Counted from the first letter of the stretch, positions 206 through 20,427 are shown. The stretch: 24,000 nucleotides of DNA from Candidatus Hodarchaeaceae archaeon (GCA_030018135.1 JASEGJ010000010.1:13283-37282); one strand, 5' to 3'. Notes: generated by a model not told the origin, from the letters alone. A program made the numbers and translations.

Positions 206-1252
206 ATGACTTGGGAAGCCTTGTTGGATCGGTATACGGCCCTCATCGACCGCAAGCTGGAGGGGCACTTCAGGTCGTTGAAAGAGGTGGCGAGTAAATA
301 CCACCATTTCATGCTCGAGACCTATGAAAACCTCGAGGAATATGTGCTCAGAAGGGGGAAAAGGTTGGCTTCGTGTAGCACCCTCCTCGCTTACAAGGGT
401 TATGCCGGCGATGTGGACGAAAAAATCCTCAATGTTGGCGTCGGCATAGAACTCTATAGGCATTCTATCCTAGTCCACGACGACTTGGTCGACGAGGATG
501 AAGCCAGAAGGGGCGGAAAATCGTTTCACGAGCTCTCCTCCGGAGTTCGCGGCCCAAAGTTTGGAGGGGGAGTTGCCATTTTCTTGGGCGATGCGGCATA
601 TGCCCTCTCGCTGGAGGCGATATTGAACTCTGGCTTCAGCGGGGAAGCGCTGCTTCGAGTGGTCCGGCTGTTGGCTGGGGGTTACCGTGAGGTGAACGAG
701 AGCCAGGTCCTCGATTTGCTTTTCGAGCACAAGGAGCCGGATGTCGAGGAGTGGTACGCAATGGCATCCAAAAGGGCGGCGTCCCTCTTCAAAGCCACGA
801 TATTAACCGGCGCCATCCTCGGCGGCGCGCCGGAGGAGGACCTGCGGACCCTGGGGGAAGCGGCGGTGAACATAGGCTACGCGTTCGACATCCAGGACGA
901 CATCATAGATACCTTCGCCACCGAGCAGCAGTACGGCAGGCCGCCTGGCGGGGACGTAGCCCGGGGTAAAAAGCCCCTCCACGTAGTGTACGCGCTTAAG
1001 TTGGCCGGGCCGGACGAGCTGGAGGTGTTTAAGGGCATCATAGGCAAGGGCAGGCTCACCTCGGAAGACCTCGAAACGGTGCGCGAGATCCTGAGGAGGA
1101 CGGGCGCCCTAAGGGCCGCGAAGGCCAAATCGGTGGAACACGCTGAGGAAGCGAAGGAGCTGATCGGAAGGACGCGAATGGACGGGGGAAGCAAGGAGTT
1201 CTTCAGCGCTTTCACCGATTACATCGCCCGAAGTCTGGACTGGTACAAGTAA
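206..1252 (+). CDS. Polyprenyl diphosphate synthase (geranylgeranyl-diphosphate-synthase-like trans-prenyltransferase)
   Basis: 348-aa ORF with both aspartate-rich motifs of trans-IPPS enzymes (LVHDDLVDEDEARRG and FDIQDDIID). Confidence 0.9.
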   Translation: MTWEALLDRYTALIDRKLEGHFRSLKEVASKYHHFMLETYENLEEYVLRRGKRLASCSTLLAYKGYAGDVDEKILNVGVGIELYRHSILVHDDLVDEDEARRGGKSFHELSSGVRGPKFGGGVAIFLGDAAYALSLEAILNSGFSGEALLRVVRLLAGGYREVNESQVLDLLFEHKEPDVEEWYAMASKRAASLFKATILTGAILGGAPEEDLRTLGEAAVNIGYAFDIQDDIIDTFATEQQYGRPPGGDVARGKKPLHVVYALKLAGPDELEVFKGIIGKGRLTSEDLETVREILRRTGALRAAKAKSVEHAEEAKELIGRTRMDGGSKEFFSAFTDYIARSLDWYK

Positions 1253-1312
1253 CATTGGATCGGCCCAAGTGCTATTTAGCCGGCCCGCCGCTGGAGCCGA
1301 TTCGCGTCACGC

Positions 1313-3118: not shown

Positions 3119-3257
3119 CTCCAGTCCTCCAACGGTTCAATAACGCTTACTGGTTTAAGTAAGTTTTGAAGTTAGGGCAGTCAGTTATAAACAATTCAGC
3201 AACCAAAATCATTTGGAAATGTAGAGTAAAGTTCGGATGACCTTAGCACTAGCGAGC

Positions 3258-3265
3258 TATTTAAT
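3258..3265 (+). promoter_or_regulatory. TATA-like box for tRNA-Gln(UUG)
   Basis: TATTTAAT lies about 26-33 nt upstream of tRNA position 1 (3291). Confidence 0.45.
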
Positions 3266-3290
3266 CGTGGGGAATCAAAACTTAAAGGGT

Positions 3291-3425
3291 AGCCCCGTGG
3301 GGTAGACCAGTAAAGCTGGGCCTAATGGTCAGGGTTCAAAGCCCCCATAAAAGCCTTCGGGCCTTTGGAGCCCGTGACCCCGGTTCGAAATCGGCCAGCC
3401 GACGAAGTTCCGGGCGGGGCTACCA
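3291..3425 (+). tRNA. tRNA-Gln (anticodon UUG) with three non-canonical introns and genomically encoded CCA
   Basis: Acceptor AGCCCCG/CGGGGCT (A1-U72), then A and CCA. Anticodon arm CGGGC-CTTTGGA-GCCCG at 3358-3374, anticodon TTG at 3365-3367. T stem CCCGG 3379-3383 / CCGGG 3410-3414. A 73-nt cloverleaf needs removal of about 3306-3325, 3332-3351 and 3390-3408. Confidence 0.8.
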
Positions 3426-3426
3426 T

Positions 3427-3621
3427 TTTTGTTAAGTAGTCTTGAGAAGTCGGATCGCCGAAGGACGTGGGGCAATTATCGCTTTTTAGCCGCTTTATTG
3501 CCTCCTTAAGGGCGTTTTCCGCGACCCGTGAAATGTTCAGGCCCGCATCCTTCGCTTCCTTCAAGATAGCAGGATCAAGGGTGATTGCGGTTATCTGGCG
3601 CTTTCGGTTTGGTCCCTTCAT
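3427..3621 (-). CDS. Candidate int(N): N-terminal ~65-aa fragment of a partitioned SSV-type integrase (alternatively a separate small ribbon-helix-helix-like protein)
   Basis: ORF 3322..3621 starts MKGPNRKRQITAITLDPAILKEAKDAGLNISRVAENALKEAIKRLK. It then reads through the tRNA 3' half as MVAPPGTSSAGRFRTGVTGSKG. That is the same phase as GRIRTGVAGSKG at the N terminus of the recombinase ORF at 5050..5940. Confidence 0.45.
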
Positions 3622-3915
3622 GTATATACACTCCTATGCACTCTCAGCCTCTTCAAGCACTTCTTTCAATCTCCTAGATATAATCCCCTTGATGTTTTCC
3701 ATACTCTGCTCCTCCGCGAGGCGGCAAAGTTGTTCTATTCGCTCAGGAGACAACTTGCGGCCCCGCCCTCGCCTGCTCGATGCTGCACACTATTAAAAAC
3801 CACTTTGCCAACCGAGACAGTGCATCGCCCATATTAAACCACGCGACATAAAAACTCGGCGCGATCTTTTTTTAGATTTTTAAGGAAATAAAAAAAGAGA
3901 GTTTGGGGCCCTAGG

Positions 3916-4392
3916 ATGGACTGGAGAGAATTTCTTCCTGTACATGAGTATAAAGCGTGGGTCGAAGACGCTCGAGATAAATTGGAGGAAGCGAAGAAGG
4001 ATCTAGATGACTTTCCTTTTAGTGCCTTTCAACGGGCCCATGAATCTGCCGAATTTTTATTAAAAGCCGTTTTGGTCCGTGCGGGCAAATTCGGTAGAAA
4101 AAATCGAATCCACCAATTACCACCGCTTCTGGATAAGATAGATCGCGAAAAATGCCTTCCACCCGGAGCGATTACTAAAGCACGAGAAATTGTGCCAGAA
4201 CTCGAGATTATAAATGTGGGCGGCCCGCGACCAGCCCCTACGCATGTCGACTCCATTACATACACAGCCGAGGTTGAATATCCGAAGGCAGGAATGTCTT
4301 CTACCGATCGAATATCAAAGGAAATGGCTGAGGAAAAAATATGTTTGTCACAACAACTGCTTGAATTATTACTTCCTTATTTGGACTGTTAA
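3916..4392 (+). CDS. HEPN-domain protein
   Basis: 158-aa ORF, helical. HEPN-like segment AHESAEFLLKAVL followed by an R-x4-H motif (GRKNRIHQL). AT-rich TATA-like sequence upstream (3870-3895). Confidence 0.7.
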   Translation: MDWREFLPVHEYKAWVEDARDKLEEAKKDLDDFPFSAFQRAHESAEFLLKAVLVRAGKFGRKNRIHQLPPLLDKIDREKCLPPGAITKAREIVPELEIINVGGPRPAPTHVDSITYTAEVEYPKAGMSSTDRISKEMAEEKICLSQQLLELLLPYLDC

Positions 4393-4402
4393 ATTGGCGC
4401 TG

Positions 4403-4687
4403 TTAACTTTTCTTTTTCCTCAACAATCTTCTTATTTGCTCTTCCTGTCTATTGTACCATTTATCAAAGAGCAGATACCCAAAGGGTAAATGAATGCCAA
4501 AGATTCCGAGTCCTCAGAAAATTAGGGGCCAGTGAAACCATATCTTTTCCGGCACAACTACGAGGTTGTAAACTGGAAAAATAACTGCGTTGAAAACCAA
4601 GTATATCACGAGATGGCAAAGGAAACCTTTTTTTGCTTCTCTCTTTTCCACAACTCTTCTCGCTTCTCTGTAATCCTTCACACTCAT
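4403..4687 (-). pseudogene. 2TM-domain small membrane protein interrupted by an in-frame TGA (4514-4516)
   Basis: My translation: MSVKDYREARRVVEKREAKKGFLCHLVIYLVFNAVIFPVYNLVVVPEKIWFHWPLIF-TGA-GLGIFGIHLPFGYLLFDKWYNRQEEQIRRLLRKKKS*. The TGA sits where this family usually has Trp (W-G-x-G-L). Below the ORF-track size cutoff. Confidence 0.5.
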
Positions 4688-4973
4688 TTTTTCACATCCA
4701 TCGGTGTGATATTGCTTCCTTAAAAGGTTGATGGAGGTATTAAGTTAACACCTATGTGAATCGCGAGGTTTTTTATTCATTTCGGTTTTCTCACTATCAC
4801 CTCATCGGTTTTGGGCATGATTGCATACACCTATCCGCGGTCTTTCGCCGCAATATAGTTTTTCGCTCGGGGCCCTCAATCAAACCCACGCGGTCAAAGC
4901 CGCAATTGAATTCCCGAGGTGCCCCTGCCCCTTTTGTTTCTCCCTTTGATGGTTGTGGGAGCATGATATTCAC

Positions 4974-5003
4974 CCGCCTCTCATCGAATAGTTTGAGAGG
5001 CGG
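4974..5003. repeat. Inverted repeat (9-bp stem, 12-nt loop) downstream of the integrase stop
   Basis: CCGCCTCTC (4974-4982) / GAGAGGCGG (4995-5003). Confidence 0.4.
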
Positions 5004-5049
5004 ATCCCTTAAAGCCGAGCGATTCATCATCCTATCAGCACCGTTAAAT

Positions 5050-5940
5050 TTACGAGAGAACTTTTAACCCCGCGCCATCGTATATCCTCTTTAACCGTTC
5101 GGGAGAGAAGTCCGTGTAATGCCTCGCCAGCACGCTCCTCGGAACCCGCCCACAGAAGGCATCGACGTATCTGTCTGCAACGCCCAACTCGCCCATCTCG
5201 GAGCAGAACCAGTCGCGCAAAATCTGGGGCGTGATCTTAACGCCCGATGCCTCGCTCGCCCGCTTGAACCACCTATCAATTCGACTACTCCGCCACGGAA
5301 AGAGCCTTTGGTCGGCGCTCACGTCCCGCCCGTTGAGGTATTCTCTCAGCGCTTGCTCCGCTTCTCGGTTGAAAAATGACGCCCATCTTTTCTTTGTTAT
5401 TGTGCTTGTTACGTTTGGCAGCACCATTCTCTTGTCAAGGTCGATGTCGCCTATCTTGAGCGATGCGACCTCATCTCGCCTAAGCCCCGATGTGGCGAGC
5501 ATCAGGAACACCGCACGTTCAAATGGCCTTTTGAGCGCTTCGTAAAATCGCTTCAACTCTTCCTTGGTCGGCACCCTTTTCGGCTTGAACTCTTGGCGCG
5601 GTAATTTGAACGTCGCCACTATTTCGCCTCTGCCCAAGAAGTCGCGGAAAAATCTTCTAAATGCTTTAAGAATGTTGGCGCGAGTCGAGGCGCTTGAATC
5701 CTTAAAGCCCGCGAGATAATCTCTAATAACATCGGTCGAAACTTCAGCGCCGTTTAACCATCTCAAGAATCGTTTAATTTCACGACAATGATCTTGGGCG
5801 GTGGCCTCGGACAGCGATAGGTCGATCGTGCAAAATTTCTTGAACTTCTCCAAAACATCAGGATCGAACGTTATGCCTTTGGAGCCCGCGACGCCGGTTC
5901 GAATCCGGCCGGGGCTACTAAATTTTAGGAAAAGTCGCAT
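5050..5940 (-). CDS. Tyrosine recombinase/integrase, C-terminal catalytic part (int(C) of an SSV-type partitioned integrase)
   Basis: 296-aa ORF. N-terminal residues SSPGRIRTGVAGSKG are the translated tRNA 3' half. SAM-like core-binding region present. Catalytic-type residues ATSGLRRDE (Arg), ILRDW (the xxR Arg) and C-terminal VLARHYTD (Tyr). The ATG at 5940 lies outside the repeat, so it is probably fortuitous. Confidence 0.85.
   Translation of the reverse strand: MRLFLKFSSPGRIRTGVAGSKGITFDPDVLEKFKKFCTIDLSLSEATAQDHCREIKRFLRWLNGAEVSTDVIRDYLAGFKDSSASTRANILKAFRRFFRDFLGRGEIVATFKLPRQEFKPKRVPTKEELKRFYEALKRPFERAVFLMLATSGLRRDEVASLKIGDIDLDKRMVLPNVTSTITKKRWASFFNREAEQALREYLNGRDVSADQRLFPWRSSRIDRWFKRASEASGVKITPQILRDWFCSEMGELGVADRYVDAFCGRVPRSVLARHYTDFSPERLKRIYDGAGLKVLS
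5875..5917 (+). other. Intron-less partial copy of the tRNA-Gln(UUG) 3' half (right att repeat)
   Basis: GCCTTTGGAGCCCGCGACGCCGGTTCGAATCCGGCCGGGGCTA: anticodon loop to discriminator, canonical T arm GCCGG-TTCGAAT-CCGGC, no 5' half, followed by CTA instead of CCA. Confidence 0.8.
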
Positions 5941-9835: not shown

Positions 9836-10081
9836 ATGAAAAAGGCGTCCGAATACTACGGCATGCGCATTTACAGCGATCGAGCGCGTTACATCGGCGC
9901 GGTCGAGGATGTAGTGATCGACGATAAGGAGGGTGCGGTGGTGGGGCTGGCTTTTGGCCGGAGGGAGGGCAAAGTGGCCTCTGTGCCCTACAGCAGCATT
10001 ATGGCGATTGGCGACATCGTTCTCGTTCGAACCAAAAAGCCGACTGAACCAGGAGGGGCCGGTGTTGCTGCAGGAGTTTGA
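9836..10081 (+). CDS. PRC-barrel domain protein
   Basis: 81-aa ORF (YYGMRIYSDRARYIGAVEDVVIDDKEGAVVGLAF..VPYSSIMAIGDIVLV). GGAGGTG lies 7 nt upstream of the ATG. Confidence 0.7.
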   Translation: MKKASEYYGMRIYSDRARYIGAVEDVVIDDKEGAVVGLAFGRREGKVASVPYSSIMAIGDIVLVRTKKPTEPGGAGVAAGV

Positions 10082-10607
10082 CGGCAAGCGACCGCGCATC
10101 CACCCCACAGCATTTGTCCACCCCGCCGCAGTCGTCATCGGTGATGTCACCATAGGGGAATACTCCAGCGTCTGGCCTGGTGCGGTCGTCCGGGGGGATT
10201 TTGCAAGCGTTAAGGTGGGCCGCTACACCTGCGTGCAGGACAATACCGTCGTCCACGCAGCCGACATCTATGAGGGTAAAACGGAGAAGTACTTGCCGGT
10301 CAAGATCGGCGACTACGTCATCGTCGGTCATAACGCGCTACTGCACGGCTGTGCGATAGCGAATGACTGCATAGTTGGCGCTGGCTCGATTGTGTTCAAC
10401 GGCGCCAGGGTCCGCGAGGGGGCGCTCGTAGGCATGGGGGCGGTTGTGCTGGCGGATGTTGAGGTGCCCCCGCGCACCATCGTCATCGGCATACCGGCAA
10501 GACCCCTTCGGAGGTTGACCGATGAGGAGTTCGGCAGGATCCGCGCACAGGCAAAAAACTACGCCAAGCTGGCGAGGCTGTACAAATCGTCCGGCGTAGA
10601 AGGTTAG
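10062..10607 (+). CDS. Gamma-class carbonic anhydrase-like left-handed beta-helix protein
   Basis: The tracked ORF opens at 9933, but homology-like sequence starts at GTG 10062, preceded by AGGAGG. Hexapeptide-repeat protein with RIHPTAFVHPAAVVIGDVTIGEYSSVWPGAVVRGD. Confidence 0.85.
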   Translation: MLLQEFDGKRPRIHPTAFVHPAAVVIGDVTIGEYSSVWPGAVVRGDFASVKVGRYTCVQDNTVVHAADIYEGKTEKYLPVKIGDYVIVGHNALLHGCAIANDCIVGAGSIVFNGARVREGALVGMGAVVLADVEVPPRTIVIGIPARPLRRLTDEEFGRIRAQAKNYAKLARLYKSSGVEG

Positions 10608-10697
10608 GTTACAATGCTTCAGTTTTTACTGTCATCTCCTTTTAGCGACTACGCCCGTCGGTAGCCCATTGAACCCATCGATCGCGTTTTAAGCCCT

Positions 10698-11777
10698 TCA
10701 GAGCGGCACAAACGTGGTCTCCAGTCGATCATGGGTTGGATATTCCTCGACTATGGCAAACTTTAGATTTGGCTCGAGCTTGGCCAGCTCTTCCGCGATG
10801 TACCAGGCCGTCTCGAGCCTGCATTTTTTTCTATCGACTGCCATTAGCTCGGCGGGGATGTCATAGCGCCTGATCAATCGCCTTCTCGTGGCCCTCAGCT
10901 CTGCTGCCGGCAGGTCGTAGATGATGCCCTTTATCAGCAACCCATCCTCGTTGATGACATCGTAGGGCATCGCGACATTTTTCGCCCTCCGCTTGAGCCT
11001 GTTGCGCAACTGCACGCCGTCCTTGAGCGCGCTTGGGCAGTAGTGGATGTTTAAGCGGGTGTTACGGGCCGCCCATTCAAGCACCCTTCGCGCGATCTCC
11101 TCGCTGCCCTTTACCGCCATCGATTCATCTGACTTGATCTTGAAACCTCTAGCCTTTAGCGCCGCGAGGTTCGTGTCGGAGAACTCCAGCTCGTTCAAAT
11201 TGACGAAGGGGCAACCGATGCGATCCAGTTCGCGAAGCAACGCGATGGTATGCCTAAATTTGCCCGGTACCGCGGGAATTTCGACGCCGGCGCGGAGCCC
11301 GGCCTCCAACGCCCTTTGAACGGGCTCGTGCGACCAAGTGTGGAATCTGAGCTCGTCGAGCCCCGCCAGACGCAACCTGTGCAATTGCTTCGAGGACAGC
11401 TCGCCCCCCACGTACATGTGGACGTGATGACGTTTGCCGAACCTCCGCTTGAGGAGCCGAAGGTAGCGAAGGGCTCGTCCTAGCCGCAGGGATGGGTCGC
11501 CCCCAGTTAGGCCGGTGCCAAGCGCATCGATGAGTTCGGCTTCCTCGACGATATCTCGCTGAGACCTGACCGGGCGCTCGTTGGCGTAGATGACATCCTT
11601 GCCGCGGCGCCTATCCGATAGCGGGCAATAAAAGCAGCCACGGGTGCAGAGCCCGGTGACAAACAGCACCAGCTTAGCGCCGCGTATGCAAAGTCGGCAG
11701 CCCTTTGGCATTCTTCCAAGCAGGATCGAGTTCGCGGGGGTGCGGACGACTCGGCGGCGCTGGTCACTCGCCCTCAT
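10698..11777 (-). CDS. Radical SAM protein (PflA-related, COG2108-like, function unknown)
   Basis: 359-aa ORF with CTRGCFYC (CxxxCxxC) after MPKGCRLCIRGAKLVLFVTG. Its ATG (11777-11775) lies 14 nt inside the end of moaE. Confidence 0.8.
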   Translation of the reverse strand: MRASDQRRRVVRTPANSILLGRMPKGCRLCIRGAKLVLFVTGLCTRGCFYCPLSDRRRGKDVIYANERPVRSQRDIVEEAELIDALGTGLTGGDPSLRLGRALRYLRLLKRRFGKRHHVHMYVGGELSSKQLHRLRLAGLDELRFHTWSHEPVQRALEAGLRAGVEIPAVPGKFRHTIALLRELDRIGCPFVNLNELEFSDTNLAALKARGFKIKSDESMAVKGSEEIARRVLEWAARNTRLNIHYCPSALKDGVQLRNRLKRRAKNVAMPYDVINEDGLLIKGIIYDLPAAELRATRRRLIRRYDIPAELMAVDRKKCRLETAWYIAEELAKLEPNLKFAIVEEYPTHDRLETTFVPL

Positions 11778-12192
11778 GAACCCAGTACTCCCCGCTTTCC
11801 GTGACTTCCTTCTTCCATATCGGCACCTCCGTTTTTATGCGGTTCATGATCTTTTGGAGCGCGGAGAATACGTCGGATCGGTGCCTGCCACCCACGATGA
11901 CATAAATGGCGTCATCCCCGGGCGTCAGGTCATCGATGATGTGGTGGATCATCACCCTCGAAATTTTCGGGTCCTTTTCCACATCCCTGGCTATTTGTTC
12001 GAGCTTTTTCACGGCATCCTCAGAGCACTCGTAGTGGAGTCGCTTCACCTCCTCGCCATCCTTCGACACATGCCTGACCACGCCGATGAAACAACCTATC
12101 GCGCCAACGTTCCCCCTGAGATCTTGCCTGAACTCTTCCAACAGCTTGGGCAGGTCAAGTTCGCCTTTCCGGTGGATCCCAACGTCGGCCAT
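11764..12192 (-). CDS. moaE: Molybdopterin synthase catalytic subunit MoaE
   Basis: MoaE-type sequence with the C-terminal VPIWKKE motif. ATG at 12192 preferred over the TTG at 12204. Confidence 0.9.
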   Translation of the reverse strand: MADVGIHRKGELDLPKLLEEFRQDLRGNVGAIGCFIGVVRHVSKDGEEVKRLHYECSEDAVKKLEQIARDVEKDPKISRVMIHHIIDDLTPGDDAIYVIVGGRHRSDVFSALQKIMNRIKTEVPIWKKEVTESGEYWVHEGE

Positions 12193-12260
12193 TGTTAGCC
12201 CCAATGGAACTAGTTCGTCCAGTTAAAATTAGCCTCCGACCAAGTTTTAGAAGTATATCG

Positions 12261-13277
12261 CTAAATGCCTTTGCAAACGGGGCAGTTTGGATCCCGGCGA
12301 ACTTCGATTACGTCGAACGTCATGTCCTCCCCGTTAAAGAACAGCATTTGTCCGACGAGCGGTTTGCCTATGCCCACGATGAGCTTGATAGCCTCCATCG
12401 CCTGAAGGCAGCCGATCGCGCCCGGCGTCGGACCCAGTACTGGGAAGGCGGGTTTCATGGGCGGTTCCCTCGGAATGATGCATCTCAAACACGGCCCCTT
12501 GCCCGGCAGGACGGTCGCGAGCTGGCCGATGAGCCCCTCGACGGCGCCGTGCACGAATGGCACGCGGTTGCGCACGCAGGCTTCGTTCAACAGGTAGCGC
12601 GTTGGATAGTTGTCCATGCCATCGATGACGACATCGGCGTCCTTGATGAGGGCACCCACATTTTTGTTCGTTATGACGTCGAGCTTGCTGTCTATTTCCA
12701 CGCTCGGGTTCATGGCAAACAACTTTTCGATCGCAGACCCAGCTTTTGACCGACCCACGTCGAGATGCCAATGCAGTATCTGGCGGTTGAGATTGCTGAG
12801 TTCGACTCGTTCAGCGTCGAGGATTGTCAGGTGCCCAACGCCGGCAGCGACCAAGTATACCGAGGCGGGACTGCCGAGGCCCCCCAAGCCAGCCACGAGC
12901 ACGTGCGCGGCCTTCAGCTTTCGCTGTCCCTCCTTGCCAAATCCGCGAATCATCATCTGCCGATTGTAGCGCTCGAGTTCCTCCGGCGTGAACGATGCTC
13001 CGCCCGATACCGGCGGAAAGATCGCCACGATGTCGCCATCTTTTAGCCCCGTCTTCAACCCGCTGAGCAGGTTTATGCCGCGGCCGTTCACCAGAATGTG
13101 GACGGTATCGCGCAGCTTTCCAGTCCTTGGCTCATAGAGTTGTTCAGCTAGCCTTTCCCCAAACTTACGGACGAGCTCCTCGAGCAGGGAAGCTACATCC
13201 TCTACGCCATCGATGTCCTCTTGTTCCTTCCCAACGGCCTCGCGGAAGTTCGCGAAGAACTTCACCTTGATAGCCAA
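12261..13277 (-). CDS. Fusion protein: MoaD/ThiS-type ubiquitin-like domain ending in Gly-Gly (aa 1-93), joined to a MoeB/ThiF/UbaA-type E1-like adenylyltransferase (aa 94-338)
   Basis: N terminus MAIKVKFFANFRE..DIVAIFPPVSGG (GG codons 13004-12999). It continues directly into ASFTPEELERYNRQ..VLVAGLGGLGSP..LSNLNRQ (E1 nucleotide-binding motifs) and the CLRC..CPVC zinc motif. TTG start. Confidence 0.9.
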   Translation of the reverse strand: MAIKVKFFANFREAVGKEQEDIDGVEDVASLLEELVRKFGERLAEQLYEPRTGKLRDTVHILVNGRGINLLSGLKTGLKDGDIVAIFPPVSGGASFTPEELERYNRQMMIRGFGKEGQRKLKAAHVLVAGLGGLGSPASVYLVAAGVGHLTILDAERVELSNLNRQILHWHLDVGRSKAGSAIEKLFAMNPSVEIDSKLDVITNKNVGALIKDADVVIDGMDNYPTRYLLNEACVRNRVPFVHGAVEGLIGQLATVLPGKGPCLRCIIPREPPMKPAFPVLGPTPGAIGCLQAMEAIKLIVGIGKPLVGQMLFFNGEDMTFDVIEVRRDPNCPVCKGI

Positions 13278-13560: not shown

Positions 13561-14103
13561 ATGGCAGGGGTAAAAACACAAATTCAAAACATAGTGCTGT
13601 CCGTCACCTACGAGGGCATAGAGTTCAACCTCGAGAAGCTGGCGAAGTCCCTGGACGGGGCGAGGTACGACCCGGAGGTCTTTCCGGGCATAGCGTATAA
13701 GTCGGAGGATCCTTCGGCGTCATTTCTCATCTTCTCATCGGGCAAGATGAACTGCGTCGGCGCAAGAAGCATGAACGACGCCAGGCAGGCGATAAAGAAG
13801 CTGACGAAGAAGCTCAGAAAGGCCAGCGTCAAGGTAAAATCCGAGCCGAAGGTCGAGGTTCAAAATATGGTCGCTTCCTTTGACTTCGGAAGGGAGTTCG
13901 ACCTCGAGCGAATCGCACGAAGTTTTGAGAACACCGAGTACGAGCCCGAGGTCTTTCCGGGGCTCGTCTTCAGGCTCGACGATCCTCCTGTCGTAGTGCT
14001 GCTATTCGTGTCGGGGAAGGGCGTCTGCGCTGGCGCTAAGAGCATGAGGGACGTAAAAAAGGCGGCACAAAAGATAACTAAATTACTTTCCCGCCGAGCA
14101 TAG
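13561..14103 (+). CDS. tbp: TATA-box-binding protein
   Basis: 180-aa ORF with the two TBP direct repeats (IQNIVLSV..YDPEVFPGIAYK..FSSGKMNCVGARS and VQNMVASF..YEPEVFPGLVFR..FVSGKGVCAGAKS). GGAGGGG upstream. Confidence 0.95.
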   Translation: MAGVKTQIQNIVLSVTYEGIEFNLEKLAKSLDGARYDPEVFPGIAYKSEDPSASFLIFSSGKMNCVGARSMNDARQAIKKLTKKLRKASVKVKSEPKVEVQNMVASFDFGREFDLERIARSFENTEYEPEVFPGLVFRLDDPPVVVLLFVSGKGVCAGAKSMRDVKKAAQKITKLLSRRA

Positions 14104-14138
14104 TGGCCCAGTTTGCCCCGCAGCTCCCACAGAATTTT

Positions 14139-14151
14139 ATAACAACGTTAT
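14139..14151. promoter_or_regulatory. Palindromic operator candidate ATAAC-N3-GTTAT (site a1), abutting a TTTATAAG TATA box
   Basis: ATAACAACGTTAT, immediately followed by ATTTATAAG. Confidence 0.6.
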
Positions 14152-14178
14152 ATTTATAAGGGGGGGGTTTATCGAAGT

Positions 14179-14191
14179 ATAACGGTGTGAT
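14179..14191. promoter_or_regulatory. Second, one-mismatch copy of the operator candidate (site a2)
   Basis: ATAACGGTGTGAT, 40 nt downstream of site a1, between the TATA box and the SD/ATG of the micro-ORF. Confidence 0.4.
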
Positions 14192-14206
14192 AGAGGAGGT
14201 AATCCA

Positions 14207-14236
14207 ATGAGGAATAGCCTTTGCGCCTGCTGCTGA
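14207..14236 (+). CDS. 9-codon Cys-rich micro-ORF (MRNSLCACC)
   Basis: ATG is preceded at 6-7 nt by GAGGAGGT, among the strongest SD-like sites I saw in the window. Sits downstream of a TATA box plus two operator-like palindromes. Translation unproven. Confidence 0.3.
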   Translation: MRNSLCACC

Positions 14237-14242
14237 TGCGTC

Positions 14243-14265
14243 GGGAGATAGGCCTTTTTCCTCCC
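14243..14265 (+). terminator. Hairpin with embedded T5 tract after the micro-ORF (possible bidirectional terminator, also for hypC)
   Basis: GGGAG (14243-14247) pairs with CTCCC (14261-14265). The loop contains TTTTT (14255-14259). CTCC is also complementary to the upstream GGAG of the SD. Confidence 0.4.
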
Positions 14266-14296
14266 AATTACCATCAACCGAAAACGAATTGTGTTC

Positions 14297-15091
14297 CTAA
14301 TCTGTTTCTACCATATATCTCTTCAGTTTCTCAGCGAGTTCGGCGGGAAGTGGCATAGATTCCATGAGCGTCGTATCCGTACAAACGGAAACGGTCGAGC
14401 ACTCGGCCACCACTTTACCCGACGTGAGATTTTTGATGACATTTCTGAACTTTATGTGCTTCCGTCCAACCTCTTCCACCCAGACCGCGACCTCGATCAT
14501 GTTGTCCAATCTGACTGGCCCAAGTATCCTGCCCGAGGTCTCCACGGTTGGGACAAACAGGCCAAACTTGTGGATTAACGCGGCATAGCTGAAACCGAGG
14601 CCCTCGAGAAGCTCCTGCTGCGCCCGCTCGCAGAACCTAAAGTAGTTCGTGTAGTGCATGACTTGTAGGTAGTCCGTGTCCGAGAGGGAGACCTTATAAG
14701 ATCTCTTGAAAGCGTTGCTGGGTATGAAAATTTCCTTCTCAGCGACTGCCATGGGTTCCGCTACCTCCGGCTCGATACTTGCTATCGACCCACGGACCCC
14801 TAAAGAATTCAGCAATTTATCCGTTTCATCCGTGGCCTTTTCTTTCGCCGCTTTTTCGTCGAGCCCAGCATCCAGCAGTTCCTGTGTGCGGATGTCCCGG
14901 TACAATGCCACATTTTCCATGAAATCTTCTGGGCTGAGCTTACCTATTATCATGCCGGCGTGGATCATGACCAAGTCACCGGACGAGATCCCGCTCGCCG
15001 CCACGACGACCTCTTTCTTAACTCCGCCGAAATCCACGAGGGCTGTGGGACCATCGAGGCTAAGGATTTTTGCTGGAACGCCCCAACACAT
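14297..15091 (-). CDS. hypC: HypC (hydrogenase maturation chaperone) fused to a C-terminal hotdog-fold 4HBT/YbgC-type acyl-CoA thioesterase domain
   Basis: N terminus MCWGVPAKILSLDG..ALVDFGGVKKEV..GDLVMIHAGMIIGKL is canonical HypC (Met-Cys start at 15091, 1 nt after the hypD stop). After a Lys/Glu-rich linker comes YKVSLSDTDYLQVMHYTNYFRFCERAQQELLEGLGFSY.., matching the 4HBT thioesterase pattern. Single uninterrupted ORF. Confidence 0.85.
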   Translation of the reverse strand: MCWGVPAKILSLDGPTALVDFGGVKKEVVVAASGISSGDLVMIHAGMIIGKLSPEDFMENVALYRDIRTQELLDAGLDEKAAKEKATDETDKLLNSLGVRGSIASIEPEVAEPMAVAEKEIFIPSNAFKRSYKVSLSDTDYLQVMHYTNYFRFCERAQQELLEGLGFSYAALIHKFGLFVPTVETSGRILGPVRLDNMIEVAVWVEEVGRKHIKFRNVIKNLTSGKVVAECSTVSVCTDTTLMESMPLPAELAEKLKRYMVETD

Positions 15092-15092
15092 G

Positions 15093-16340
15093 TTAGCCAT
15101 CTCCCGATCGTGCCTCGGATTTAACCGAACTCATCTCGCTGTACCTGGCCCAGATAGCGCATGCCCCCTCCGAGGATACCATACATGGCCCCCACGGGTT
15201 CAGCGGGGAGCAGCCCTTCATGAAGAGGGGGCAGTCCGCGGGCTTAGCTATGCCGACGATGACCTCGCCGCACCTACACCTTGGAGGGAGGTCGTGCTCC
15301 CATGGGACGCCGTGGTGCGCATGGGTGTAAATAAATTCCTTCGGGGTCAAATCCGGCACGTCGAAGTGTTTCAATGCATCATGCTTTTCGAAAAATTCCC
15401 CTTTGAGCTTGAGCCCGCTTCGGGGGATGAATCCGAGACCCCTCCAAGCCGCATATGCCCTTTCAAAGACCTCGTCAATCAATTTCTTCGCGTATTCGTT
15501 CCCTCCCCATTTCACGAGCCGCTTGTACTCTATCTTTACCGCGGGTCTGTTCTCCTTTATCATCAGGAGTATCTGGGCCACCGCCATCAGGACGTCGATC
15601 GGCTCAAACCCTGCGACCACGGTGGGCAAACCGTGCACCCGCGGAAGGAACTCCCACTCCGCCGCGCCGATTATGGTTGAGACGTGGCCTGGCGCTATAA
15701 CCCCCCTTATCGGCAACAACCCGCGCTCTTGGTGGATCTTGACAGTGTACTTCATCGATGGCGGGGTCAACCTCATTACGTTAAGGAATTTTAGGTCCTC
15801 CGAAACCATTCCCCTCGTCAGCGTCAACGCGTAACTGGGGGCCGTCGTCTCGAACCCTATGCCGAAAAACACGCTCTCTTTTCCTTGCTCACGCGAGTCC
15901 CTTGCCGCATCGAGGAAGCTATAAACGACTTTGACATCGCCGCCATCCACCTTAACTTCTTGGAGGCTGGCAGGGCATCCGGCCTTTGCGCTGCGAAGTC
16001 TCAGCGAGTCGCCATAGGTGTAAATCCTGATGCCTTCCCGCGCGAGTTTTACTGCGACATCGACATAGTACGAGGGGACAACGCACACGGGGCAACCTGG
16101 TCCAGCCACCATGTCCAAGAAAGGAGGAAGGAGGTCCCTCAGGCCGTAGTAGGTTGTGGTCCATTCGTGGGTGCCGCAGAAGTTCATTATCTTGATCGCG
16201 TCGCATTTCTCCCTCTCCCTGATCGCGCTAGCGTACTTCCATATGGTGTCCCTAAGCTTCGACGCTAGCGGTAGGTTCTGCCTGAACACTTGTCTTATGA
16301 GTTCCCGGTCATCGAGCTGACTTTTCAAGTACCGCACCAT
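15093..16340 (-). CDS. hypD: [NiFe]-hydrogenase maturation protein HypD
   Basis: 415-aa ORF with the motifs FCGTHE, GPGCPVCV and a C-terminal Cys cluster (PRCRCGEV..DCPLF..GPCMVSSEGAC). Confidence 0.95.
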   Translation of the reverse strand: MVRYLKSQLDDRELIRQVFRQNLPLASKLRDTIWKYASAIREREKCDAIKIMNFCGTHEWTTTYYGLRDLLPPFLDMVAGPGCPVCVVPSYYVDVAVKLAREGIRIYTYGDSLRLRSAKAGCPASLQEVKVDGGDVKVVYSFLDAARDSREQGKESVFFGIGFETTAPSYALTLTRGMVSEDLKFLNVMRLTPPSMKYTVKIHQERGLLPIRGVIAPGHVSTIIGAAEWEFLPRVHGLPTVVAGFEPIDVLMAVAQILLMIKENRPAVKIEYKRLVKWGGNEYAKKLIDEVFERAYAAWRGLGFIPRSGLKLKGEFFEKHDALKHFDVPDLTPKEFIYTHAHHGVPWEHDLPPRCRCGEVIVGIAKPADCPLFMKGCSPLNPWGPCMVSSEGACAIWARYSEMSSVKSEARSGDG

Positions 16341-16421
16341 CCCGCTATCAAATCATGTCTTTAACTATTTAGGCAACGGAAAAAAATTCAGTTTTCCGCA
16401 ATGCGGTGCCAATGCTGTTAT

Positions 16422-16763
16422 TCAAACCTTATCCGCTTCGAGCAATAGTCGGAGATCCTCATCCTTTAGGTCTGCCCTATGATATACTCTGACCAAGTAA
16501 GCTACCCGATCCGCAACCGATGACTCAACGCCTAGTTCACCCAAGATTTTTCGTGCAAGCTTTGAGCCTTTTCGGCAGTGGATTTCCATCTTTGAATTCT
16601 GGTCTTGAATGTTGCCCACAAATCCCCCTCGGTATGGAAGGGAGTAACCAATATCATGGAGGTAAGCGGCTGCGATGAGCAACTGCTTGTTGAGCGTCGA
16701 TGTTTTAAGGAGCCTTTTCACGTTCGCGACTACCTTCGCTGTATGCTCGTAGTACCTAGGCAC
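16422..16763 (-). CDS. HD-domain protein (possibly N-terminally truncated)
   Basis: 113-aa ORF with AAYLHDIGY (HD motif) and an upstream His (YYEHTAKV). GTG start directly after an in-frame TGA. Confidence 0.6.
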   Translation of the reverse strand: MPRYYEHTAKVVANVKRLLKTSTLNKQLLIAAAYLHDIGYSLPYRGGFVGNIQDQNSKMEIHCRKGSKLARKILGELGVESSVADRVAYLVRVYHRADLKDEDLRLLLEADKV

Positions 16764-17165
16764 GCTGTTCTCGAATATCTCCTTAACCCTTTGGTCCAGC
16801 TTCGTTTCAAGAGCCCGCAGCCATCTAGATGCTCTGCCTGTCGAACTCGTGCTTCATAAATTTTCAAATTTGTCATTTGAGCTTGCTGAGGAAGAGGTCA
16901 TCCTGAGCTTGTTCATTAGGTCCTCATACGTCATCCTGTCTACCAAGCTCCAGTTGAACTCCTCTGCCTCCCTGAACTCCAAACGCAGCGCGTTATATGG
17001 ACATGCGGGGGACATGCGGCGTGCGATGTCCCCAAGCTTTCTAGCTCCCCTTTGACCTGACTGAAATTTTCAGCTGCATTGGCTTTTTCGACTACTTGGT
17101 CCAGTTCGCCCCAACTTCTGCAGTATTACCTCGTGTTCCTCCTTCAGTATCTGAATTGGGTGCAT
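16764..17165 (-). pseudogene. Decayed coding region (hemerythrin/DUF438-like N terminus followed by multiple frame breaks)
   Basis: ATG at 17165 gives MHPIQILKEEHEVILQKLG... Protein-like sequence then continues only by switching frames (..LDQVVEKANAAENFSQVKGELESL.., ..EFREAEEFNWSLVDRMTYEDLMNKL..). Lower GC than the neighbours. Confidence 0.3.
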
Positions 17166-17224
17166 GGGATCTAGCGCCGAGGCCTTCCCAATAATCCGGT
17201 GAAAATTTTACTTGTCTATAAGAG

Positions 17225-17851
17225 CTAATATTTTTTGCACAACCGAACGGCTTGCATAATATGGGCGGCATGAGCGTCAGCGCCCATCTCGTGCGCCAAG
17301 CTCTCCGAAGCGGCCGATCCGCCGATGATAACCTTTACATTTTTTCTGAGCCCCCTCGCCTCCAACATCCCGACGGCCCGCCACGCCGCATAAATCGCCG
17401 TCGAAAGCCGCAGCGACATTGCAGCGATGTCAGCTTTATGCCTCTCGACTGCTTTGACGAAGGTCTCCGGCGAAACGAAGACGCCCACATCCACCACCTC
17501 GAATCCCGCGGCCCTCAGCCACGTAGCCACCAAATTTTTCCCGATGTCGTGTACGTCGGGTCCGACCGTCCCGATCACAACCTTACCTAACTTTCCTCCT
17601 TCAGGTAACTTCGGTGCAAGCCTTTCCCGGGCCCTCTCAAACATCTCGGCGGCGATCAAGACCTCCGGCAGGAAAATTTCTTGTTTTTCATATGCTCCCC
17701 CGACGGCCATCATCCCCCGCGATAGGCCCCTCAAAATGGCTTGAGCTGGGATTTTCTGAAGTGTAGCCCTATCGATGTCCTCGAGGAGTCCCCTATAGTC
17801 GAGCCTACTTACATCTCGCTCAATTTCCCTCAAAATTTTAGCCATGGGCAT
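17225..17851 (-). CDS. Cobalamin-binding corrinoid protein (MtaC/MtbC/MttC-like)
   Basis: 208-aa ORF with the B12-binding motif GTVGPDVHDIGKN (DxHxxG), then MSLRLS and IIGGSA elements, and an N-terminal helical cap domain. Confidence 0.9.
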   Translation of the reverse strand: MPMAKILREIERDVSRLDYRGLLEDIDRATLQKIPAQAILRGLSRGMMAVGGAYEKQEIFLPEVLIAAEMFERARERLAPKLPEGGKLGKVVIGTVGPDVHDIGKNLVATWLRAAGFEVVDVGVFVSPETFVKAVERHKADIAAMSLRLSTAIYAAWRAVGMLEARGLRKNVKVIIGGSAASESLAHEMGADAHAAHIMQAVRLCKKY

Positions 17852-18893
17852 GGGCCTTCGCCACCTCCAACACGGCTTTAACCTTCGCCATGGCGCCGGC
17901 CTCGCCGAAGCTCCTGCCCGGGAATGGCCTATGCGTGTCTGTTAAAACCAGCCGCCTGCTGCCGTGGCGGCGCAGGAGTTTTTCCGCTACCCTGGCGACC
18001 TCCTGTGGTCCGACATCATCCATGAACATGAGCTCTATCGGAATTCCCGTAAAGAAGACCATCTCGCTGACCGCCTTTCGGGCTTTCACGATTAAATCCA
18101 CCCACTTGAGCGAATCGCCGACCGTAGCCTTGGGCGCGAAATCGAGCGGGTGGAGCGAGTCGTAACACCTCGCGAGCTCGACTAAAAGGTTTCGAACGAG
18201 AAGGTTACCATCCGCGTGCAACTTCGTGAATTTCCCCCGCTTCCTCACCTCGCCGGCCAGCTTCCTGTGCCAGCGAAGGTAGTCGCGTCGCATGAACCGG
18301 GCTGAGTAGTTTGGCCCCGCGTGGCCGCATGCGTCGTCGGCTATGCGCACCGCGTCGACGTAATTGAGTTCAGCTCCCACCTTCACCAGCTCGAGGATGT
18401 ATGCGCCGCACCGGTCGTACAGCTCGCGGCCCCTGCGTGGCCCCAACTCCGTCAGGATCGAAAAGTCGAAGTGATGCCTGGAGAGCGCCGGGTAAGTCGC
18501 GCGTTCAGGGTAGGCGATGGGCGAGGGGGGCATGCAGAAGAATTCGCTCTGCTCGGTTGGCCCCAGGACCTCGAATACGACGAATCTATCATTCGTGAAC
18601 CGCTCCATCTCTTCGACTTTGTTCATCGTCTCCTCGACGACCTCGTCGACGTCGGGCCAGTCGTACTCGTCCATGTCGAGCCCCTCCGACCACTCCCACA
18701 GGTCCCCCCCCTCGCGGCGCCTGAACGGACCTCCCTTCGAGAGAAAGGATCCCCACCTAGGCACCCATGCATGAATCACGACCGCATCGCCCAGCTCGTG
18801 CTCCAAGGTCTTTTGCTCGCTCTCGAACAGGAGTGGGATTCGAGGCGGCTCCTTGCCCTCAAAGACCGCGTGGACGAGTTCCCTCGAGTTCAC
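17838..18893 (-). CDS. Uroporphyrinogen-decarboxylase (URO-D/MtaA) family methyltransferase-like protein
   Basis: 351-aa ORF. URO-D-type N terminus (SRELVHAVFEGKEPPRIPLL) and LHADGNLL..LHPLD core. No obvious H-x-C zinc motif. GTG start with GGAGG 7 nt upstream. 14-nt overlap with the corrinoid protein gene. Confidence 0.75.
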   Translation of the reverse strand: MNSRELVHAVFEGKEPPRIPLLFESEQKTLEHELGDAVVIHAWVPRWGSFLSKGGPFRRREGGDLWEWSEGLDMDEYDWPDVDEVVEETMNKVEEMERFTNDRFVVFEVLGPTEQSEFFCMPPSPIAYPERATYPALSRHHFDFSILTELGPRRGRELYDRCGAYILELVKVGAELNYVDAVRIADDACGHAGPNYSARFMRRDYLRWHRKLAGEVRKRGKFTKLHADGNLLVRNLLVELARCYDSLHPLDFAPKATVGDSLKWVDLIVKARKAVSEMVFFTGIPIELMFMDDVGPQEVARVAEKLLRRHGSRRLVLTDTHRPFPGRSFGEAGAMAKVKAVLEVAKAHAHG

Positions 18894-18977
18894 CGAGCAC
18901 CCCTCCTTGAAAAATTTAACGCGATGCGCGGGCGAGATGCCTCTTGTAGGAGTTGGCGCAGTGCACGCAGCAGAACA

Positions 18978-19205
18978 TCAACACCACATGAACGCGATGT
19001 CAGGCTGCGGTGAAGTTGCTGAGGTCCCCTTCCGCGACACATTCGATTTGCCCCCATAGGCTGCACTCCTCACAAATTCGCAGAAGCGCGCCGGCAATTT
19101 CGGCCTCTGCCCGGCAATCACTTCCTTCGATATCTTTATCGCCACAGGGCTCGCCGAGAGCTGAAAGAATTTTCGAAATTTCTTTGATGTCCCCTCATAC
19201 CTCAT
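18978..19205 (-). CDS. Small ORF coupled to SepCysS; resembles only the N-terminal part of DUF169 proteins (possible gene remnant)
   Basis: ATG at 19205 lies 1 nt after the SepCysS stop. MRYEGTSKKFRKFFQLSASPVAIKISKE..RFCEFVRSAAYGGKS is DUF169-like; the remaining residues are not. Confidence 0.35.
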   Translation of the reverse strand: MRYEGTSKKFRKFFQLSASPVAIKISKEVIAGQRPKLPARFCEFVRSAAYGGKSNVSRKGTSATSPQPDIAFMWC

Positions 19206-19206
19206 T

Positions 19207-20427
19207 TCATTCAACCCCGATGTCGTATGACCTAGCTATTTCGTGAAATGCATCCGCGACCTTTTGAAGTTGATCTCGGTTCAGGCCGTAAGTGTTTAAT
19301 TTTATCAGCTTGGTCATCCCTGGATGTATGCCGGATATCTTCCTCTTTTTAAGTTCCTCGTGGAGGAAGAACCCGCGCCGTTCATGTTTTTTGGCGACCC
19401 TGTGGAAGGATGGGGTTTCGAAGCTGACGAGGGTGTGCCGCCTCGGCCGTTCGCCAAGTTGGTGGAAGTCCTTGATGCGTTCTAATTCTTTTACCAACCA
19501 CCTGATTTTCTCCACCTCCTCCTCCCAGCGCTTCACTCGCCCGACGACGTGCGGGAAGCTCGCCATTAGCGTCGCGATTGGCGCCCCGAACACTGGCGGA
19601 CATCCGAAGAGGAAGACCTCTTTTTTAGCGAAGGCACGGCCGCTCCAAGGACCTTTGATCGTCGAAGTTCTGAAAACCTTATCTGCGAACTCATAGGTTG
19701 TTGCTAAAATTCCTATTGGCCCAGATGCAGCCCAAGATTTATGCCCGCTACCCACCAGAAAATCTGCCTGCAACTTTTTGCCGTCTACAGGCATAACGCC
19801 CGCCGTGTACGCGGCATTCAAGATGAAAGGTACACCGTAACTCTTAGCTATTTTTCCAACCGCAGCTGCTTCAGCGAGGTTCCCGTAGCGGTAGTCGGCA
19901 TGCGTTAGAAGTACCGACGCCGGGAGCTCACCCGTTTCTCGCTTGACCTCATCGATTTTTACCGCATAGTCGTCTGCCTTTATCTTGAACTCGGGATAAC
20001 CGCTGTGCGGCACCTCGACTATCTTGAGGCCGTTGAGCTCAGCTGCGATGTAAGTGGTGTAATGAGCAAGCGAGTCGATCACTACCATGTCACCAGGCTC
20101 AGTTATTGCCTTGAAAATCGCATTTTTTGCGCCCCTTGCGCCTGGTGTGAAGTTGACCTCGTCCATGTTCAAAAACTTGGCCACATCGTCGGCGAAGTCG
20201 AATATGGGCGGTTTTTTCACCAGGTCAACGCGACCCTCTAAACAATAATCGCAGACGCTGTAGCCGTCGGCGAATGAGAGCAGGGTCTCGCGGGTTTCCG
20301 GGGGCAGTATTCCTCCCCTTTGAATCGGGTGTAAATTGATCCAACTCTCGTCGACCTCTCGGCGGAGGTTTTTGTATATGTCGAGATTTATTTCTCTCAC
20401 CCTATCGTCCCCAAGAAACTGTCCCAC
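19207..20427 (-). CDS. pscS: O-phosphoseryl-tRNA(Cys):Cys-tRNA synthase (SepCysS)
   Basis: 406-aa ORF. INLHPIQRGG, GYSVCDYC, PLP-lysine motif VGSGHKSWAASGPIG, MASFPHV..RVKRWEEEV, closely matching SepCysS as I recall it from Archaeoglobus and methanogens. Start is GTG 20427, or possibly GTG 20400. Confidence 0.9.
   Translation of the reverse strand: MGQFLGDDRVREINLDIYKNLRREVDESWINLHPIQRGGILPPETRETLLSFADGYSVCDYCLEGRVDLVKKPPIFDFADDVAKFLNMDEVNFTPGARGAKNAIFKAITEPGDMVVIDSLAHYTTYIAAELNGLKIVEVPHSGYPEFKIKADDYAVKIDEVKRETGELPASVLLTHADYRYGNLAEAAAVGKIAKSYGVPFILNAAYTAGVMPVDGKKLQADFLVGSGHKSWAASGPIGILATTYEFADKVFRTSTIKGPWSGRAFAKKEVFLFGCPPVFGAPIATLMASFPHVVGRVKRWEEEVEKIRWLVKELERIKDFHQLGERPRRHTLVSFETPSFHRVAKKHERRGFFLHEELKKRKISGIHPGMTKLIKLNTYGLNRDQLQKVADAFHEIARSYDIGVE

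Follow-up and report, generated by a model that had tools for sequence, protein, structure and literature searches.

HypC, a chaperone of hydrogenase maturation, is very probably produced in several groups of archaea as a real and functional fusion protein, in which a complete thioesterase domain of the hotdog fold is attached to its C-terminus. The fusion gene considered here lies at positions 14297-15091, on the minus strand, of a stretch of 24,000 nucleotides from Candidatus Hodarchaeaceae archaeon (GCA_030018135.1, JASEGJ010000010.1:13283-37282), which is referred to below as the window. Judged by its domains and its position, the gene is the hypC of its locus, and its product is predicted to be the chaperone that, together with HypD, assembles the Fe(CN)2CO group of [NiFe]-hydrogenase and carries it. 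The earlier note on this DNA had recognised a HypC fused to a hotdog acyl-CoA (coenzyme A) thioesterase right after HypD, and this is borne out by matches to the Pfam domains of both parts and by a hypD gene one base upstream. It is plausible that the added domain processes thioesters at the iron site of the HypC-HypD (HypCD) complex.

The fusion is encoded by a single open reading frame (ORF) of 264 amino acids (aa), whose stop codon occupies 14297-14299. A mechanical ORF list gives a longer frame (14297-15100, 267 aa) with the N-terminus MANMC; the true start is taken to be the ATG at 15089-15091, because every homologue, as well as an identical protein at NCBI (P0001), begins with MCWGVP. 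The motifs quoted in the earlier note (VDFGGVK, HAGMIIGKL, and SLSDTDYLQVMHYTNYF) are all found in this ORF. Immediately upstream and in the same orientation is hypD (15093-16340, minus strand; PF01924, E-value 4e-116), which ends at 15093, one base ahead of the fusion start codon, and the pair forms a two-gene hypD-hypC unit. A TATA-binding protein gene (13561-14103, plus strand; PF00352, E-value 6e-55) converges on the fusion gene; its presence indicates that the window is archaeal and that the hyp unit is closed off at this point.

To which families do the two parts belong? Residues 1-63 match PF01455 (HupF_HypC) with an E-value of 2e-17 and 63.4 bits, against a gathering cutoff of 28.5. 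Residues 134-256 match PF13279 (4HBT_2; E-value 2.5e-11, 44.5 bits, cutoff 25.5), and the C-terminal part also matches PF03061 (4HBT; E-value 2e-7, 31.5 bits, cutoff 20.6). A scan with NCBIfam finds the same two families, both under the curated cutoffs. The HypC model TIGR00074 scores 35.4 bits against a cutoff of 48, and NCBI names the protein as a member of the HypC/HybG/HupF family despite this shortfall. The YbgC/FadM subfamily model TIGR00051 scores 56.4 bits against 68.7, and the equivalog models for the YbgC of the tol-pal system lie far lower still in relation to their cutoffs (53.1 against 141 bits and 43.4 against 185 bits).

An AlphaFold2 model of the fusion, built from an alignment of 48 sequences (A1), has a mean predicted local distance difference test score (pLDDT) of 87 and agrees with this division. 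The HypC domain (residues 1-75; 14867-15091, minus strand) is delimited by PF01455, by the model, and by alignment with HypC of Thermococcus kodakarensis. It consists of an OB-type (oligonucleotide/oligosaccharide-binding) beta-barrel, modelled at residues 5-52, and the usual C-terminal helix of HypC, at residues 54-74, and it contains Cys2 and His44. It is followed by a second helix that is specific to this family (residues 76-98; 14798-14866, minus strand), modelled at residues 79-96. Next comes a flexible, acidic linker of variable length (residues 99-123; 14723-14797, minus strand), within which residues 110-118 have a pLDDT below 50 and appear disordered. While the coordinates of the gene had been given exactly in the earlier note, the domain junction had been guessed at 14830-14900, and the linker actually lies slightly downstream of that guess. 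The remainder of the protein is a hotdog (4HBT) thioesterase domain of the YbgC class (residues 124-264; 14300-14722, minus strand), as identified by PF13279, PF03061, and Foldseek; the fold itself is modelled at residues 128-259. The pLDDT of this domain is mostly between 85 and 97, falling to about 66 for residues 141-150.

Both domains have relatives of known structure. For the HypC part this is T. kodakarensis HypC (2z1c, and the HypCD/HypCDE complexes 3vyr-3vyu), to which it can be aligned over its full length (E-value 3e-11), with Cys2 and the conserved histidine both paired. The latter, His44, corresponds to the histidine of the xHxG strand, which is His51 in the numbering of Escherichia coli HypC. 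For the thioesterase domain, the closest solved relatives by sequence are a Pseudomonas aeruginosa protein (5v10) and E. coli YbgC (1s5u, 5kl9, and 5t06), with E-values from 2e-14 to 5e-8. Foldseek comparison with YbgC-type structures gives template modelling (TM) scores of 0.84-0.90, normalised to the target, and the fold matches include YbgC solved with CoA and with acyl-CoAs. In a HMMER alignment, the 'sdtd' of the fusion pairs with the 'edtd' of E. coli YbgC. The second aspartate of this motif, which we take to be the catalytic residue of the class (D18 in YbgC, D17 in Pseudomonas 4HBT thioesterase), is Asp140 in the fusion (codon at 14672-14674, minus strand), the second D of S-D-T-D and hence the predicted catalytic aspartate.

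The artefact explanation, in which two separate genes have been joined by a missed stop codon, a frameshift, or an assembly error, can practically be discounted. The earlier note had raised both a missed stop between the domains and restriction to a single assembly as possible weaknesses. A search of 5.8 billion proteins retrieved homologues in 61 independent clusters at 39-100% identity, drawn from assemblies of NCBI, JGI, ENA, and Logan; in 60 of them, the exception being P0059 (see below), an intact fused ORF carries both Pfam domains. When each GTDB species was represented by one genome, 24 species proved to have the fusion. Moreover, the states in which the domain has truly been lost look different: one lineage has deleted it cleanly, and another has acquired a stop codon and an internal deletion (see below). 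One protein of 152 aa that consists of the thioesterase domain only (P0059) was considered as a stand-alone or split version; it is a truncation at the end of a contig, and is followed by hypE and hypF.

All of the genomes carrying the fusion in the GTDB scan are metagenome-assembled genomes (MAGs), with no cultured host among the 24 species. The hosts are labelled as Hadarchaeota or Hadesarchaea, Geoarchaeota, Nitrososphaerota, Desulfurococcales, Sulfolobales, and Thermoproteota; thus, the fusion appears to be an old arrangement that is common to Hadarchaeota and several Thermoproteota-type lineages. The source label that NCBI gives to P0001 (identical to the translation of window positions 14300-15091) is 'Candidatus Hodarchaeaceae', which is an Asgard family. 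This is probably a mix-up between names in Hod- and Had-, because the close relatives and the syntenic contigs are all labelled Hadarchaeota or Hadesarchaea. In databases the annotation of the fusion proteins is piecemeal, either as 'HypC family' or as 'acyl-CoA thioester hydrolase'. No description of this architecture was found in open-access papers and preprints, in line with the earlier note, which knew of none.

Both parts of the protein are conserved within the family. Asp140 is invariant in 48 of 48 aligned fusions, which answers the question of whether the catalytic pattern had been kept in homologues. Also invariant in this alignment are Y141, L142, Q143, H146, Y147, N149, E155, R156, H174, R194, D196, N221, and D239. 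In the HypC part, His44 is present in 48/48 and Cys2 in all 39 of the homologues with complete N-termini; in the second helix, there is near-invariance at G76, A82, A86, L97, and G98. Averaged over pairs of sequences, identity amounts to 61% for the thioesterase domain, 50% for the HypC barrel, 34% for the first helix, 43% for the second helix, and 18% for the linker. By this measure the thioesterase domain is the most constrained segment of the fusion, and it is evidently under strong purifying selection with its catalytic residues apparently intact. The hotdog domain also has two cysteines, C154 and C237, that hardly vary: P0045 replaces both (by V and A, respectively), and P0023 replaces C237 alone (by S). 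This pattern hints at a disulfide or a shared site.

Where is the fusion gene found? In four loci labelled Nitrososphaerota (L003 and L013-L015) it is part of a full operon consisting of two hdrA-like genes, mvhD/FlpD, the small and large hydrogenase subunits (the latter of the HoxH type), hycI, hypD, the fusion, hypE, and hypF. Since it stands between hypD and hypE in these operons, the fusion holds the slot of hypC. Hadarchaeota, Geoarchaeota, and some Desulfurococcaceae have hypD followed by the fusion gene as a pair, and hypE and hypF are often no more than a few kilobases away, as is the case for three Hadarchaeota loci (L006, L008, and L009). No second hypC was found in any of the loci that were fetched.

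A different arrangement is encountered in a clade labelled Sulfolobales or Desulfurococcales, where the fusion gene is apart from other hyp genes (L001, L019-L028, and L030-L031). In this clade it is always beside an operon for a four-subunit 2-oxoacid:ferredoxin oxidoreductase (delta-alpha-beta-gamma), and its neighbours also include IscS, NifU, and two genes for unknown proteins of 203 and 377 aa. This neighbourhood persists through an inversion (L019 and L028). The two proteins were considered as divergent HypD or other Hyp proteins; they are neither, and give only weak thioredoxin- or glutaredoxin-like signals below threshold. A small gene in the same loci has a very weak TusA-like match (E-value 0.037), far under the cutoff. 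NifU, IscS, and an oxidoreductase operon are also found within 10 kb of the fusion gene in two Hadesarchaea loci (L002 and L011).

Members of the isolated-fusion clade do have HypD. This can be seen from the Sulfolobales-labelled MAG SKW88, where the fusion gene and an isolated hypD are about 110 kb apart on one contig of 334 kb; there is no canonical hypC beside this hypD. In two loci from Sulfolobales-labelled MAGs (L043, positions 10001-12292; L044, positions 1162-3453), the gene right after the isolated hypD belongs to the FmdA_AmdA (formamidase/acetamidase) family. The proximity of a C1-amide hydrolase to the gene for a cyanide and carbonyl scaffold may be a coincidence.

Do any close relatives lack the thioesterase domain? 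A search with the HypC part alone retrieved shorter HypC proteins (108-114 aa), which share 76-83% identity with the HypC part of the window protein. The second helix is kept in these proteins (P0208-P0210) and is missing from a canonical HypC of 68 aa (P0211). P0209 is found on ten contigs; the three loci examined (L037-L039) each come from a different sample. The P0209 locus is syntenic with the window over almost the whole length, at 70-82% nucleotide identity, and has the order hypD, hypC, a convergent gene for the TATA-binding protein, ThiS-ThiF, MoaE, radical S-adenosylmethionine (SAM) gene, and onward to AFOR. Window positions 14104-14854 have no counterpart in it: in the P0209 lineage, the thioesterase domain has been cleanly removed. 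In P0208, which comes from three samples (L040-L042), hypC ends at a TAG codon where the window has GAG. The stop codon is followed by a decayed remnant of the thioesterase domain, 'VAKKEISIPHNAFKGT', and then by a deletion that joins 'YK.SL' to 'LFVPTVET' (L040, positions 1082-1600; also in L041 and L042) and that leaves neither catalytic motif nor central helix.

A neighbour-joining tree was constructed, without bootstrap, from the HypC part; in it, both forms lacking the thioesterase domain nest inside the fusion-bearing Hadarchaeota, and P0208 adjoins the window's own protein. This nesting indicates that the fusion is ancestral in the Hadarchaeota clade and that the domain has been lost at least two times; the remnant and the synteny point the same way. 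The loci L037-L039 also differ upstream of hypD, where they carry an oxidative-stress cluster (rubrerythrin-like, rubredoxin, ferritin-like, and flavodiiron proteins). In its place, positions 16320-19207 of the window contain an HD-domain gene, a B12-binding gene, and a gene for an unknown protein of 351 aa.

On a structural explanation, the hotdog domain would be mainly a module for dimerisation or docking and thioester chemistry would be secondary or absent. For example, it might pair two HypC-HypD units in the way that HypE dimers do, or it might stabilise HypC at high temperature. Hotdog folds are obligate dimers or tetramers; the many invariant polar residues of surface type and the C154/C237 pair could reflect an interface or a stabilising pair; and the family-specific second helix survives the loss of the thioesterase domain. 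It has also been reported that two HypCD heterodimers bind one HypE dimer (PMC12134894). However, a pure scaffold would have no need of the catalytic aspartate and the complete active-site motif, both invariant in 48/48 fusions; a rigid architecture is hard to square with the long disordered linker; and loss of the domain leaves a hypD-hypC pair that looks to be in working order. The structural explanation is considered improbable.

The fusion might also be coincidental, with a housekeeping acyl-CoA thioesterase having become joined to hypC by deletion of the intergenic DNA and playing no role in maturation. An exhaustive HMMER scan with the thioesterase domain was carried out against 1.84 billion representatives, and the best 150 of 1969 matches were considered. 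Among these 150, four are representatives of the fusion; below them the scores fall sharply to a stand-alone protein at 41% identity, and then to proteins at 37-38%. Of the stand-alone relatives, P0062 (41% identity) and P0063 (37%) have no hyp genes close by, and the fusion motif DTD-YLQ-VMHY, which overlaps the invariant DYLQVMHYxNY, is replaced in the nearest stand-alone relatives by one of the type DTD-AAG-VVHF. Thus, the thioesterase domains of the fusions appear to form a clade of their own. Longer proteins among the same 150 matches were inspected as candidates for other HypC-thioesterase fusions; they proved to have unrelated architectures or to be double hotdogs.

How well does coincidence fare against these data? 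YbgC-like domains have indeed been fused to unrelated partners elsewhere, for example a cytidylate kinase and a response-regulator receiver domain. In addition, the domain can go while hypD-hypC stays, and in one clade the fusion is far from other hyp genes and beside metabolic genes. By contrast, the fusion has been kept across phylum-level divergence, down to 39% identity, with higher conservation in the thioesterase part than in HypC and with an invariant thioesterase motif peculiar to the family. Both domains remain in frame with each other even though the linker between them is free to change in length and sequence; furthermore, there is no close stand-alone orthologue among the matches considered, the nearest being the protein at 41% identity. 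An accidental union without a role in maturation is unlikely, although the other fusions of YbgC-like domains lend it some weight.

What, then, might a thioesterase contribute to HypC? The earlier note had described the CO ligand's source in anaerobes as unresolved, and this is still so in a 2025 review, which ranks its origin ahead of every other question in urgency and names formyl-CoA as one candidate (PMC12134894). In aerobes, formyl-CoA supplies CO to HypCD by way of HypX, an accessory synthase of the CO ligand (PMC12134894). When E. coli HypC was analysed by native mass spectrometry, adducts of +28 Da (formyl or CO) and +26 Da (possibly acetyl-derived) were detected that depend on Cys2, and these have been discussed by the authors as possible precursors of CO (PMC10847431).

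Against this background, we propose a possible role for the thioesterase domain in the supply of CO. The hotdog domain probably dimerises, since such folds have their active site at the subunit interface, and it would swing on a linker of about 25-30 residues to act on a short-chain thioester beside Cys2 of HypC or the iron site of HypD. A small acyl-CoA, such as formyl-CoA or acetyl-CoA, would be cleaved by means of Asp140 and a carbonyl precursor would be fed to the iron. The domain would then be an accessory module for CO supply, similar to HypX in role and not in fold, which supplements the default anaerobic route to CO; a supplementary role would explain why some relatives can do without it. 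The proposal draws on the conserved fused ORF, the occupation of the hypC slot and the lack of a second hypC in the loci, the intact Cys2, His44, and Asp140, the YbgC fold, the separate clade of the domain, and the literature context. Of the explanations considered, we favour this mechanism, tentatively and as a possibility that stops short of being probable.

Several considerations weigh against the CO-precursor mechanism. Hotdog thioesterases hydrolyse thioesters, and none is known that releases CO or acylates a protein thiol. Most anaerobes mature their hydrogenase using a plain HypC. What links the domain to formyl-CoA, to CO, or to any substrate is the fusion itself, and because YbgC-like domains join unrelated partners, a fusion is weak evidence of a shared pathway. 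The repeated loss of the domain is a further difficulty. No close stand-alone copy of the thioesterase was found in the full-length search of 5.8 billion proteins, apart from the contig-end truncation P0059; since this search should have found such a copy, the loss looks real and is not the result of a gene split. Since close relatives have twice dispensed with the domain while retaining hypD-hypC, maturation cannot depend on it, and it must be accessory rather than core. Finally, the model has only moderate confidence for the active-site loop (residues 141-150), and with a predicted TM score (pTM) of only 0.53 it does not predict how the two domains are placed relative to each other.

Alternatively, the tethered thioesterase might serve in editing or protection. 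It would strip unwanted acyl groups from Cys2 of HypC or from cysteines of HypD or HypE, or lower the local concentration of acyl-CoA, thereby keeping the thiols of the scaffold free in hot cells that are rich in acyl-CoA. The catalytic aspartate is invariant and the domain is tethered to a protein with an essential N-terminal cysteine. Both HypC and HybG of E. coli accumulate cysteine-dependent adducts, of which the possibly acetyl-derived +26 Da form may be off-pathway (PMC10847431). Loss in some lineages would suit a form of quality control that is helpful and non-essential, many of the source MAGs are labelled as hot-spring or subsurface, and in the Sulfolobales-type clade the fusion gene is beside the 2-oxoacid:ferredoxin oxidoreductase operon, whose product makes acyl-CoA. 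However, acyl groups on an N-terminal cysteine undergo a fast S-to-N shift, so that hydrolysis would help only if it were very quick; the domain would also need to accept thioesters bound to protein; and the conserved polar residues (Q143, H146, E155, R156, H174, R194, D196, N221, and D239) suggest a specific ligand or partner over broad scavenging. An editing role is accordingly regarded as a doubtful, albeit serious, competitor.

Although it is tempting to go further than the tentative CO-precursor mechanism and to regard the domain as a carbonyl source for anoxic conditions that is independent of HypX and releases CO directly at the HypCD iron, this bolder version is a long shot. In such a scheme, attack of Asp140 on formyl-CoA would yield a mixed formyl-aspartyl anhydride; small-molecule formic anhydrides break down to CO and acid. 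Alternatively, the formyl group might be handed to Cys2 of HypC. If this version were true, stand-alone hotdog thioesterases could carry out the same carbonyl step redundantly in other anaerobes.

The conserved HypC-thioesterase fusion offers independent genomic evidence for thioester chemistry at the HypC cysteine or the iron site. It is also a compact protein in which the thioester idea can be put to the test, with the sister lineages that lack the domain as ready-made points of comparison. Even with a protective or structural function, the domain would add a new type of accessory module to a very well-studied maturation machinery. The weight of these points is limited in that the connection with CO is guilt by fusion, the hosts amount to about two dozen uncultured species, and the domain has been lost repeatedly.

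Two other features of the window deserve mention. Positions 3361-3396 and 5875-5910 form a direct repeat of 36 nucleotides that is 89% identical and resembles the 3' half of a transfer RNA (tRNA; GGTTCGAAxCCGGCC); ARAGORN calls no tRNA in the window. The repeat flanks an insert of about 2.5 kb (element at about 3361-5940) that contains a tyrosine integrase of archaeal type (5050-5940, minus strand) and a HEPN-domain gene (3916-4392), and that is missing from the otherwise syntenic L037. This region has the appearance of a small integrated element and its att sites. Separately, a single ORF at 12261-13277 (minus strand) has a ThiS/MoaD-like ubiquitin-fold domain joined to a ThiF/MoeB-like E1 domain, and adjoins MoaE and a radical SAM gene; the same fused ThiS-ThiF arrangement is found in L002 and L037.

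How does the fusion compare with known systems? With HypC and HybG (T. kodakarensis 2z1c and 3vyr-3vyu; E. coli HypC) it shares the N-terminal 75 residues, including the Met-Cys start, the conserved histidine, and the OB fold with its helix. It also shares the position of the gene beside hypD, in some lineages within full hyp operons. During maturation of HypC the methionine is removed, which makes the cysteine residue 1. In contrast to canonical HypC, which is a single domain of 68-90 aa, the fusion protein of 264 aa adds a second helix, a disordered linker, and an enzyme domain of 140 residues. The nearest precedent for a HypC extended at the C-terminus is HupF of Rhizobium leguminosarum, a paralogue of HypC whose C-terminal extension serves an additional, condition-dependent role in maturation. 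However, the extension of HupF is short and non-enzymatic, whereas that of the fusion is a complete hotdog thioesterase domain.

The thioesterase domain shares its fold, its sequence similarity (E-values down to 2e-14), and the position of the catalytic aspartate with thioesterases of the YbgC/FadM type, such as E. coli YbgC and P. aeruginosa 5v10. However, the tol-pal context of YbgC is absent around the fusion, which has an archaeal setting. The small residues that follow the aspartate in YbgC-type enzymes (DTD-AGG or DTD-AAG) are replaced in the fusion by an invariant Y-L-Q, together with many extra invariant polar residues.

The comparison with HypX is one of role. HypX consists of a formyl-tetrahydrofolate transferase domain and a crotonase-like formyl-CoA decarbonylase domain, neither of which is present in the fusion, where only the HypC and 4HBT families match. 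Both HypX and the fusion domain are patchy in their distribution; HypX is crotonase-like and free-standing, whereas the fusion domain is a hotdog joined to HypC. Furthermore, HypX is aerobic, while the hosts of the fusion appear to be anaerobes. We infer that the fusion domain could be a functional analogue of HypX, with a different fold that is joined to the chaperone.

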